From Acidimicrobiales bacterium (lineage in GTDB: Bacteria; Actinomycetota; Acidimicrobiia; Acidimicrobiales; RAAP-2): a DNA stretch of 64,000 nt. The DNA is taken from the NCBI GenBank assembly GCA_049793015.1, contig JBARBL010000104.1:8246-72245 (forward strand), read 5' to 3'. The position numbers and the translations under genes were made by a program. The first letter of the stretch is position 1, and each line of letters starts with the position of its first letter. Positions 58,039 through 59,706 of the stretch are shown here, one piece after another. Below the pieces are notes generated by a model. That model was not told the DNA's origin. It did not search any database and saw only the letters and a list, made by a program, of their open reading frames with translations.

Positions 58039-58314
58039 TCAGCCGCCGGCCACGGCGGGCACCAGCGAGACCGTCTGGCCGGCCTCGAGGACCGTGTCCA
58101 GGCCCTGGAGGAACCGGACATCCTCGTCGGCCACGAAGATGTTCACGAAGCGGCGAAGCGCCCCGTGGTCGTCCAGGACTCGAAAGGCGATGCCCGGATA
58201 GGCCACGTCGACCGCCACGATGGCGTCGCGCACCGTCGCGGCCTCGACCGGAACCTCGCCCGCCCCCCCGACCAGGGAGCGCAGCTGGCTGGGCAGTCGC
58301 ACGATCACGCTCAC
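58039..58314 (-). CDS. MoaD/ThiS-family sulfur-carrier protein ending in Gly-Gly (CysO/MetO-like)
   Basis: GTG at 58314 forms a GTGA overlap with the upstream stop. 91 aa: VSVIVRLPSQLRSLVGGAGEVPVEA...GQTVSLVPAVAGG-stop. Beta-grasp length with a free GG terminus. Confidence 0.75.
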   Translation of the reverse strand: MSVIVRLPSQLRSLVGGAGEVPVEAATVRDAIVAVDVAYPGIAFRVLDDHGALRRFVNIFVADEDVRFLQGLDTVLEAGQTVSLVPAVAGG

Positions 58315-59558
58315 GAGGCCGCCACCAACTGGTGAAAGCGCAGGGCCTCTTCGGCCTCGGCCAGCGAGGGCTTGATGGTGGAGCTCACCACCGCCGAGTC
58401 GACGACCGCGTCCAGGGTCTTGAGACCATGGCCGGAGATGATGGCCACGATCGATTTCTTCGGGTCGATCGTGCCGCGCGCGATCATCTGGCGCAGCGAC
58501 GCGATCGTCACCCCGCCCGCCGTCTCGGCGAAGATGCCCTCGGTCTGGGCGAGCAGGCCGATGCACTCGAGGATCTCCTCGTCAGGCACCGATCCGCAGT
58601 CGCCGCCGCTTCGGCGAAGCTCGTCGAGCACGTAGGGGCCGTCGGCGGGATTGCCGATGGCCAGGGATCGCGCGATCGTGTGGGGGCGCTGGGGAGTGAT
58701 GAAGTCCGCTCCCTGCGCGTGGGCCGTAGCGACCGGCGAGCACCCCGTGGCCTGGGCGCCGAAGAGCACCGGCGCCGGACCGTCCACCAGGCCCAGCTCG
58801 ATGAACTCGTTGAACCCCTTGGCGATCTTGGTGAACTGGCTGCCGGACGCGACAGGCACCACCACCTGGTCGGGGGTGCGCCACCCGAGTTGCTCGGCGA
58901 TCTCGAAGGCCAATGTCTTGGAGCCCTCGGCGTAGTAGGCGCGGAGGTTCACATTGGCGAAGGCCCAGTCGGGGTGCTCGGCGACCAATTCCACGCAGAG
59001 TCGGTTCACGTCGTCGTAACTGCCCTCGACGCCGAGCACCGTGCCGCCGAAGATAGCTGTCATGGCGATCTTTGACTTCTCCAGATCGGCGGGGATGATC
59101 GTGACGCTGGGCCAGCCGATGAAGGCCGCGTGGGCCGCGACCGAGGTCGCGAGGTTGCCGGTCGAGGCGCAGGCCGCCGTCGTGAAGCCGAGACGCCGAG
59201 CGCTCGAGAGCGCGACCGACACGACCCGGTCCTTGAACGAGCCCGTGGGGTTGCGGGTGTCGTCCTTCAACCACAGCTCCTCGACGCCGAGCACGTCGGC
59301 CAAGCGAGTCGCCCGGCGCAACGGCGTCCAGCCGGCGCCCAGGTCCACCGGCTCGGCCCCGGGGTCGGGCAGCAGCGCGGCGTATCGCCAGATGGACGGC
59401 GGACCGGCGGCAATCGACTCTCTGGTCACCACCCCTCGGGCCGCGTCAAGATCGTAGGAGACCCCCAGCGGACCGAAGCAGAACTCACAGGAGTAGCGCG
59501 CCTCCGTGGGATAGGTGGCACCGCACTCCCGGCATAAAAGACTTGTAGCGAAACTCAT
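58311..59558 (-). CDS. threonine-synthase-like PLP enzyme with N-terminal zinc ribbon (ThrC/MetM-like)
   Basis: ATG at 59558 preceded by GAGGGAG. CRECGATYPTEARYSCEFC zinc ribbon and PLP lysine motif PTGSFKDRVVSV. The tracked ORF start at 59678 would run through the riboswitch. Confidence 0.85.
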   Translation of the reverse strand: MSFATSLLCRECGATYPTEARYSCEFCFGPLGVSYDLDAARGVVTRESIAAGPPSIWRYAALLPDPGAEPVDLGAGWTPLRRATRLADVLGVEELWLKDDTRNPTGSFKDRVVSVALSSARRLGFTTAACASTGNLATSVAAHAAFIGWPSVTIIPADLEKSKIAMTAIFGGTVLGVEGSYDDVNRLCVELVAEHPDWAFANVNLRAYYAEGSKTLAFEIAEQLGWRTPDQVVVPVASGSQFTKIAKGFNEFIELGLVDGPAPVLFGAQATGCSPVATAHAQGADFITPQRPHTIARSLAIGNPADGPYVLDELRRSGGDCGSVPDEEILECIGLLAQTEGIFAETAGGVTIASLRQMIARGTIDPKKSIVAIISGHGLKTLDAVVDSAVVSSTIKPSLAEAEEALRFHQLVAAS

Positions 59559-59568
59559 AACTCCCTCT

Positions 59569-59670
59569 TCATCGTTCGGGCTTTGGCACCTGGTGTGATG
59601 AGAGGGTCGCTCTTTGATCACACTGGTTGTCGCGACTTCAACGGGCCCGTCCCTCAGTCGCTCTGGATGA
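59569..59670 (-). promoter_or_regulatory. SAM riboswitch, SAM-I clan (P4-less, SAM-I/IV-like)
   Basis: Minus-strand RNA: UCAUCCAGAGCGACUGAGGGACGGGCCCGUUGAAGUCGCGACAACCAG...CCAGGUGCCAAAGCCCGAACGAUGA. It has P1 UCAUC/GAUGA, AGAG, P2 CGACU/AGUCG enclosing GAGGGAC-GGCCCG-UGAA, CAACC and GGUGCCAA, all S-box core signatures. The Shine-Dalgarno sequence follows immediately. Confidence 0.75.
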
Positions 59671-59677
59671 TCTGACA

Positions 59678-59706
59678 ATTCTGACGGTTCACTGACAATT
59701 TGTCAA
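59678..59706 (-). promoter_or_regulatory. putative promoter of the riboswitch operon
   Basis: Minus strand reads TTGACA (59706-59701), 17 nt, then CAGAAT (59683-59678). The riboswitch P1 starts 8 nt downstream. Confidence 0.4.

Follow-up and report, generated by a model that had tools for sequence, protein, structure and literature searches.

A probable SAM-controlled metM-metO operon for homocysteine formation in Acidimicrobiales, preceded by a SAM-I-type aptamer without helix P4

We analysed a 64,000-nucleotide stretch of genomic DNA from an Acidimicrobiales bacterium (GenBank assembly GCA_049793015.1, contig JBARBL010000104.1, positions 8,246 to 72,245 of the forward strand; hereafter, the window). 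The locus of interest, on the minus strand at 58039-59706, comprises two overlapping genes behind a leader that resembles an S-adenosylmethionine (SAM) riboswitch. The first gene is metM-like and encodes an enzyme of the threonine synthase (ThrC) fold, and the second is metO-like and encodes a small sulfur-carrier protein. An original prediction, made from the letters of the sequence, had proposed that the two form a thiocarboxylate route to homocysteine under SAM control. The parts that it listed were all recovered at the locus, namely a sigma-70-like promoter, a 415-aa threonine-synthase-fold enzyme with a zinc ribbon and a PTGSFKDR motif for pyridoxal phosphate (PLP), and a 91-aa MoaD/ThiS-like protein that overlaps the enzyme gene by GTGA and ends in Gly-Gly. 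Their coordinates are collected in Table 1, together with those of the aptamer and of the Shine-Dalgarno sequence (SD).

Table 1. Features of the metM-metO-type locus in order of transcription, in window coordinates. MFE, minimum free energy; ORF, open reading frame.
Feature	Position	Strand	Basis
Sigma-70-like promoter: -35 TTGACA (59706-59701), 17-nt spacer, -10 CAGAAT (59683-59678)	59678..59706	-	10/12 consensus positions
SAM-I-type aptamer without P4	59566..59673	-	RF00162, 55.8 bits vs gathering score 44.4
CCCUCUC in the distal P3 loop/stem, complement of the SD-region AGAGGG; possible anti-SD or tertiary contact	59600..59606	-	MFE fold; not conserved
Shine-Dalgarno GAGGGAG, 1 base past the P1 3' strand and 2 bases (UU) before the ATG	59561..59567	-	Sequence
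metM-like gene, 415 aa, ATG at 59558, TGA 58313-58311	58311..59558	-	ORF, Pfam, tree
N-terminal four-Cys ribbon, C9, C12, C24 and C27	59478..59534	-	Cys conservation; alignments to PDB ThrC start later
Codon of K109 in PTGSFKDR, the PLP Schiff-base lysine	59232..59234	-	Motif aligned with ThrC SFKDR
metO-like gene, 91 aa, GTG 58314-58312, Gly-Gly 58047-58042, TGA 58041-58039	58039..58314	-	ORF, Pfam, PDB

Three promoter-like matches were found in 2 kb, where 0.1 would be expected, and both the TTGAC of the -35 box and the A.AAT of the -10 box are invariant across six close relatives. With a typical start ~7 nt past the -10 box, the 5' end of the mRNA would fall at approximately the first base of the aptamer. 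The metM-like and metO-like genes share four nucleotides (GTGA), and a terminator scan of 57900-59900 returned no terminator-like site. The SD core AGGGAG is kept in most of the 92 unique leaders collected for the window's subclade (see below), and the SD is the presumed target of translational repression. In close relatives, the called genes run in the order PALP, ThiS (again with a 4-nt overlap) and groEL, and the flanks of the relatives' loci are of a housekeeping kind, with clpC, radA, carD, ispDF, a SpoU methylase, and a GT2 glycosyltransferase. Between the metO-like gene and groEL (56337-57959, minus strand), an inverted repeat of the CIRCE type (TTAGCACTC-N9-GACTGCTAA, minus strand, 58004-58030) was observed; it has one mismatch to the consensus, and none would be expected by chance. 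Because of this repeat, groEL appears to be under its own HrcA-type control, though the gap between the two genes has no terminator.

The 415-aa protein was found to be a fold-type II PLP enzyme (Pfam PALP, 241.7 bits) in which S107, K109, D110, and R111 are invariant among homologues. Its closest solved structures are the ThrC enzymes of B. subtilis, A. aeolicus-type, T. thermophilus, and M. tuberculosis (E values of 1e-47 to 1e-49), and, given that nothing closer was returned, the copy of the PDB that was searched appears to hold no MetM structure. These alignments begin at query residues 53-68, so that the first ~55 residues, which carry the Cys ribbon, are extra. No MetM-specific NCBIfam model turned up for the protein, and the cysKM model TIGR01136 reached 39 bits against a cutoff of 344, which places the protein outside the CysK/CysM models. 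All retrieved named database entries for its relatives read "threonine synthase".

In a neighbor-joining tree of the catalytic core, all 45 sampled locus proteins formed a single clade, those from Cyanobacteria and Nitrospirota included, and the window protein thus clusters apart from true threonine synthases, as had been anticipated. Identity to the window protein within the clade was 55-61% across Actinomycetota, Chloroflexota, Cyanobacteria, and Nitrospirota, while the closest homologues (86-94% identical) come from metagenomes and metagenome-assembled genomes labelled Acidimicrobiales or Acidimicrobiaceae. The canonical ThrC proteins of B. subtilis, T. thermophilus, M. tuberculosis, and Nonomuraea fall outside the clade at 34-38% identity. 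A haloarchaeal ThrC that has the Cys ribbon falls outside as well, so the ribbon does not discriminate between the two groups. More telling are 25 positions at which 44 or 45 of the 45 clade members agree with one another and depart from the ThrC consensus; among them are KDR-VV against KDR-GM, STGN-L against STGN-T, an invariant C273, and T381 against a ThrC D. Two residues of T. thermophilus ThrC, R160 and N188, are replaced in every one of the 45 members, in the window protein by Y209 and S238, respectively. In T. thermophilus ThrC, R160 and N188 probably help to hold the released phosphate that guides water addition. If they do, this clade has rebuilt the very site to which ThrC owes its reaction specificity.

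Canonical thrC was searched for in the window and in 1.9 Mb of related loci, and only Nonomuraea was found to have one. Nonomuraea gerenzanensis carries a SAM-I-metM-metO unit plus a canonical thrC whose product is 65.6% identical to M. tuberculosis ThrC, which means that the metM-like and canonical genes coexist in at least one cultured relative. The record in question (NZ_LT559118.1; loci L086 and L207) is 11.85 Mb long with 10 annotated features; it is listed as 'plasmid I' in PLSDB and is evidently the chromosome.

The 91-aa protein scored 48.1 bits against Pfam ThiS (cutoff 22.5) and 53.9 against NCBIfam SAMP1, under the cutoff of 60 for that model. Its best PDB matches are M. tuberculosis CysO, as seen in the CysM-CysO complex (3dwg_C), and a ThiS/MoaD-family carrier of Amycolatopsis orientalis (4n6e_B). 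Both matches are full length at E 6.8e-16, and both proteins have the same PAVAGG end as the window carrier.

The linkage between enzyme and carrier was evaluated across 87 loci. These are the best 80 from a GTDB scan with one genome per species (Acidimicrobiia, Solirubrobacterales/Thermoleophilia, Actinomycetes, Chloroflexota, Cyanobacteria, Nitrospirota, and others), five metagenomic loci, one from Nonomuraea, and the window itself. Streptomyces did not appear among the best 80, nor among 120 matches to a profile built from eight actinomycete homologues. A MetO-like ORF lies within 6 kb of the enzyme gene in 73 of the 87 loci, mostly directly downstream, so that the small ORF is indeed conserved beside ThrC-like genes in relatives. 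All-against-all clustering of the ORFs in these loci found no family beyond MetM and MetO that recurs across phyla, and Pfam scans of candidate neighbours, in which an E1, a JAMM protease, and thrB were sought, returned unrelated families.

Nearly all of the carriers end in PAVAGG. A minority have one to seven residues past the Gly-Gly (C, Q, R, SR, CF, GHD, ADSVT, APNPLSL, or TGEAAD) and would need C-terminal trimming, which is the role that GapMind gives to Mec. In three loci with a MetM 94% identical to that of the window (L001-L003, positions 11245-11523), MetO ends in AVAGGC, one added Cys codon relative to the AVAGG of the window, and this codon decides whether Mec-type trimming would be needed. 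Two of the 14 loci with no nearby carrier are cut by contig ends. The rest are mostly from Pseudonocardiales, Jatrophihabitans, Nakamurella, and similar Actinomycetes, and their downstream ORFs are unrelated. Ten loci (L033-L035, L057, L071, L074-L076, L080, and L083) have a SAM-I riboswitch and a MetM-like gene, yet no carrier within 6 kb. The sulfur donor in the carrier-less Actinomycetes must be encoded elsewhere or shared, CysO being one example.

The leader was scanned against 4227 Rfam families, with the best match per clan reported. It matched RF00162 (SAM) above the gathering score (Table 1), with an E value of 3.6e-10 for the whole 64-kb window. The original prediction had read an S-box leader here with a P1 of UCAUC and GAUGA, and both the class and the helix stand: P1 is a 5-bp pairing of 59670-59666 with 59573-59569. 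P2 has a kink-turn (K-turn)-like internal loop, P3 is present and lengthened by a distal hairpin, and the P2 loop CGGG (59649-59646) can pair with the J3/4 segment CCCG (59580-59577) to form the pseudoknot PK-1. One correction is needed, in that helix P4 is missing entirely. Model positions 82-97 are deleted in the window aptamer, and the deletion is common to all Acidimicrobiia leaders. For this reason, the aptamer was filed as a P4-less variant in the SAM-I clan and not as a canonical SAM-I; it shares with SAM-I the helices P1 to P3, the K-turn in P2, PK-1, and the conserved junction nucleotides, but has no four-way junction with P4. SAM-IV riboswitches also lack P4 and have a P5 hairpin and a second pseudoknot, PK-2, from the P3 loop to the 3' end. 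The window sequence could form a pairing of the PK-2 type, but the leaders of its subclade do not conserve it.

A pattern search of metagenomes yielded 92 unique leaders of the window's subclade, to which 20 sister-subclade leaders were added, and 111 unique leaders were parsed. For 89 of the 92, an automatic start assignment was obtained and places them before ATGAGTTTCGC-like MetM starts; the other three precede a variant MetM start. Of the 111 P4-less leaders, 61 have PK-1 as CGGG:CCCG and 50 as CGGC:GCCG. Mixed pairs do not occur, and one further variant, CCCGG:CCGGG, was also observed. The P2a helix shows compensatory pairs as well (GCGAC/GUCGC, GCGGC/GCCGC, GCAGC/GCUGC, and GCGGU/ACCGC). 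Given that PK-1 and P2 covary as expected for SAM-I, the RNA is a conserved structured element and not a decayed relic.

Across lineages, RF00162 was found directly upstream of the enzyme gene in 13/13 loci from Solirubrobacterales, Actinomycetes, Miltoncostaeaceae, and three Chloroflexota (66-85 bits), and in 6/6 loci from Acidimicrobiia and other Actinomycetota (52-67 bits). The 11 loci scanned from Cyanobacteria, Nitrospirota, Omnitrophota, other Chloroflexota, and unclassified bacteria gave no RF00162 match at the gathering threshold. Where Rfam and a simple motif screen were both applied, the two agreed, and the screen showed the same pattern in the remaining loci. For Cyanobacteria, the missing riboswitch agrees with what has been published on Microcystis.

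The expression platforms behind these aptamers are of three designs. In Actinomycetes, P4 is retained in normal form, and the 3' end of P1 and the SD overlap. Solirubrobacterales leaders (loci L031, L036-L038, L043, L045, L054, L056, L067, and L069) have a GC-rich hairpin (…ACCUCCG…CGGAGGU) with the SD GGAGG in its 3' strand and then, immediately ahead of the ATG, a U-run in L045 and L054 and a weaker U-rich tail in L069. This hairpin could both terminate transcription and mask the SD; our simple terminator scanner missed such hairpins, which have long loops, and folding revealed them. In Acidimicrobiia, the SD abuts P1 of the P4-less aptamer. That the same sensor has been kept before the same gene through three output designs argues strongly that SAM control of the operon is functional.

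In the window leader, the lack of a terminator, the 5-bp P1, and an SD that starts one base past it make translational repression the natural reading. The most economical model is that the SD and the standby site would be occluded when P1 and PK-1 lock. The leader would consist of almost nothing but the P4-less aptamer, beginning at about the 5' end of the mRNA. Abundant SAM would lock P1 and PK-1, the ribosome-binding site (and the standby site) would become inaccessible, and translation of metM would stop, as would that of the translationally coupled metO.

We also considered a direct contact between the P3 loop (L3) and the SD. The MFE fold of the window leader pairs the CCCUCUC of this loop with the AGAGGG of the SD, and the 6-bp complement is better than that of shuffled L3 loops (z = -2.5, p about 0.017). 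As a general mechanism, a PK-2-like pseudoknot of this kind was rejected. The complementarity between L3 and the tail was not conserved over 59 L3/tail combinations (mean z -0.79, median p 0.22), the commonest L3 type is no more complementary to the tail than chance, and changes in the tail from G to A or U are uncompensated in L3. Instead, L3 covaries as a local hairpin (AGAG/CUCU, GAGC/GCUC, CAG/CUG, and GGGA/UCCC). In this particular sequence, a PK-2-like contact may nevertheless form.

Taken together, we read the locus as a SAM-controlled metM-metO operon that would make homocysteine from O-phosphohomoserine by way of a sulfur-carrier protein, and we put the probability of this reading at roughly 0.85. 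The sequence features, the family assignments, the split of the clade from ThrC, the conserved linkages to carrier and riboswitch, and the covariation of the aptamer are observed directly; we infer which substrates are used, by what chemistry, which E1 is involved, and how the SD is occluded. MetO would be a CysO-type beta-grasp carrier with a free C-terminal Gly-Gly, which a MoeZ-type E1, its gene lying elsewhere in the genome, would adenylate and turn into a thiocarboxylate. MetM would bind O-phospho-L-homoserine and eliminate phosphate to leave a PLP-bound, vinylglycine-type intermediate, to which it would add the thiocarboxylate sulfur at C-gamma. An S-to-N acyl shift and hydrolysis would then give L-homocysteine, which would be methylated to methionine.

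A MetM/MetO/Mec/MoeZ route from O-phosphohomoserine to homocysteine has been described in Streptomyces albulus (Hasebe et al. 2024, Appl Environ Microbiol 90:e01247-24). A 2025 paper places a SAM riboswitch upstream of S. albulus metM and reports homologues in Cyanobacteria, while GapMind 2026 includes the MetM/MetO pathway and states that MetM is often misannotated as threonine synthase. In mycobacteria, MoeZR is the proven E1 that sulfurates CysO. The existence of a Streptomyces MetM/MetO system, which the original prediction had mentioned, is therefore confirmed by the literature, as is the frequent misannotation. Its central claim, a thiocarboxylate route of this type under SAM control, is supported by the separate clade, the carrier linkage in 73/87 loci, and the SAM-I aptamer found throughout Actinomycetota. 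The proposed extension to this lineage holds in that the taxonomic range is widened; the implied novelty of the SAM control was overstated, since such control of the operon had already been reported, and the locus adds no new chemistry or regulation.

The window locus and the S. albulus system have in common a ThrC-homologous PLP enzyme with a ThiS/MoaD-type carrier, an upstream SAM riboswitch, a "threonine synthase" annotation, and, presumably, the need for a MoeZ-type E1 encoded elsewhere. They differ in that the host here belongs to the class Acidimicrobiia, the window carrier ends directly in Gly-Gly and needs no Mec-type trimming, and the aptamer lacks P4 with control that is apparently translational; the likeness was drawn from described features and, indirectly, from actinomycete homologues that have the same riboswitch and carrier. 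With the CysM/CysO system of M. tuberculosis (with Mec and MoeZR), the window locus shares a clearly CysO-type carrier with an identical PAVAGG terminus, and the general scheme of a protein thiocarboxylate that gives its sulfur to a PLP-bound, phosphate-activated amino acid. Its enzyme, however, is of the ThrC family and not CysK/CysM, is under SAM-riboswitch control, and would be expected to take O-phosphohomoserine as substrate and to yield homocysteine. Canonical ThrC (PDB 6cgq, 2zsj, 1uim, and 2d1f) shares the fold and the PLP-lysine motif and presumably also acts on O-phosphohomoserine, but differs in the identity level, clade, and 25 substitutions described above, in lacking (in the solved structures) the four-Cys ribbon, and in having neither a sulfur carrier nor a SAM riboswitch coupled to it. 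In Wolinella succinogenes, the HcyS/MetY system also draws the sulfur of homocysteine from a protein thiocarboxylate. The enzyme there is MetY, a fold-type I O-acetylhomoserine sulfhydrylase, in place of a ThrC-fold enzyme with O-phosphohomoserine as its substrate.

Further sulfur-related genes were observed in the window and in relatives. At 39609-42139 (minus strand), a cystathionine beta-synthase (CBS; PALP plus CBS domain, TIGR01137, 550 bits) is directly followed by a MetB/CGL-type Cys_Met_Meta_PP enzyme (NF005871, 600 bits), with no riboswitch upstream of the pair. In mycobacteria, this arrangement serves reverse transsulfuration. Homocysteine made at the metM-metO locus could thus also feed cysteine through this pair. 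Four Nitrospirota loci (L047, L063, L072, and L085) have a cysK-type gene (TIGR01139, 446-459 bits) on the same strand ~1 kb upstream of the MetM/MetO-like pair, and no SAM riboswitch was found at any of the four. In the window at 17925-19240 (plus strand), a gene of the TauE/SafE sulfite-exporter family directly precedes a DUF4395 gene, and the two may be a sulfur-related pair.

Several observations weigh against the reading of the locus as a metM-metO operon. Pfam scans of the ~60 window ORFs found no ThiF/MoeZ-type E1, rhodanese, JAMM protease, or homoserine kinase; the lack of an E1 and of a JAMM protease had been pointed out in the original prediction. The function of the enzyme is assigned purely by homology, with S. 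albulus MetM compared by its description, and the NCBIfam thrC model TIGR00260 gives the protein a score of 267 bits (cutoff 167). A cyanobacterial homologue acted in vitro as a threonine synthase/deaminase, with no clear MetM activity. No second thrC was found in the 64-kb window or in any Acidimicrobiia locus searched. On the RNA side, the 151-nt leader folds no better than shuffled sequences (z = -0.23), and the L3-SD complementarity is not conserved across the subclade.

Three other explanations were weighed. The enzyme and carrier might catalyse a gamma-replacement that also depends on a thiocarboxylate but differs in acceptor or product, with SAM control serving a salvage or specialised-metabolite role. 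A function assigned by homology leaves room for this, as do the Actinomycetes with riboswitch and enzyme but no carrier within 6 kb, in which partners can evidently vary. We nonetheless consider it very unlikely, given the housekeeping surroundings (groEL, ispDF, clpC, radA, and carD) with no biosynthetic cluster, the breadth and good conservation of the clade, and a riboswitch link that is as expected for methionine biosynthesis.

Equally to be considered is a genuine, maybe sole, threonine synthase behind a SAM riboswitch that steers the flux of O-phosphohomoserine between threonine and methionine, next to an unrelated MoaD/ThiS-type ORF. The TIGR00260 match, the database names, the ThrC structures as nearest solved relatives, the in vitro activity of the cyanobacterial homologue, and the lack of a second thrC in the window would all fit. 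The names, however, were assigned automatically, and GapMind warns that such annotation gets MetM wrong; the clade stands apart from canonical ThrC, with the residues at T. thermophilus positions 160 and 188 replaced throughout. A Gly-Gly carrier is linked to the enzyme gene across four phyla, including a 4-nt translational overlap, and Nonomuraea carries both a metM-like gene and a canonical thrC. We regard this explanation as very improbable. A CysM/CysO-like system that makes cysteine from O-phosphoserine and the carrier thiocarboxylate is just as hard to credit, in spite of a carrier whose best structural relatives are CysO, the same general chemistry, and the cysK-type gene ~1 kb upstream of the pair in Nitrospirota relatives, because the enzyme is ThrC-like and far below the cysKM cutoff, the regulator is SAM, the end product of the methionine branch, the window already has a CBS and MetB/CGL-type pair able to make cysteine from homocysteine, and the characterised relative uses O-phosphohomoserine.

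The metM-metO reading can be extended to a broader proposal in two joined parts, which we offer tentatively and consider rather unlikely to hold as a whole. The leader would be an undescribed minimal subclass of the SAM-I clan that has the core, the K-turn, and PK-1 and lacks both P4 and a conserved PK-2. Placed at the extreme 5' end of the mRNA and with the ribosome-binding site against P1, it would gate translation through ligand-induced closure of the 5-bp P1 alone. MetM/MetO would at the same time be the chief route by which this lineage brings reduced sulfur into its amino acids, with cysteine made afterwards via the CBS and MetB/CGL-type pair of the window.

Other features of the window were recorded in passing. 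A 641-aa protein at 61289-63214 (minus strand) combines five Listeria-Bacteroides repeat (Flg_new) units with an OmpA-like domain at its C-terminus; it lies beside a tRNA-Thr(UGU) at 61086-61161, and its position is kept in relatives. ORFs of 692, 266, 269, 110, 262, and 284 aa, located at 21814-25936 (plus strand), 46271-47412 (minus strand), and 51092-51946 (minus strand), have coding-like GC content at third codon positions, and none of the six had a Pfam match at E below 0.01.

Judged from its sequence, the window locus has every feature of a MetM/MetO system. Known biochemistry is unchanged by this, as both the pathway and its SAM control were reported already in 2024. The added value is modest and consists of the breadth of the clade with its uniform misannotation, the residues that distinguish it from ThrC, and the covarying aptamer. 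That a SAM-I-type aptamer without P4 covaries cleanly, with the ribosome-binding site right after P1, is a modestly new point, and as a naturally minimised SAM-I fold, it would lend itself to work on structure and folding. MetM-type enzymes can be told from ThrC by the 25 clade-specific positions together with the carrier linkage. The clade spans Actinomycetota, Chloroflexota, Cyanobacteria, and Nitrospirota and is called "threonine synthase" in every named entry retrieved, and because of this misannotation, metabolic reconstructions of abundant uncultured soil and freshwater bacteria would miss a homocysteine route and may count a false threonine synthase.

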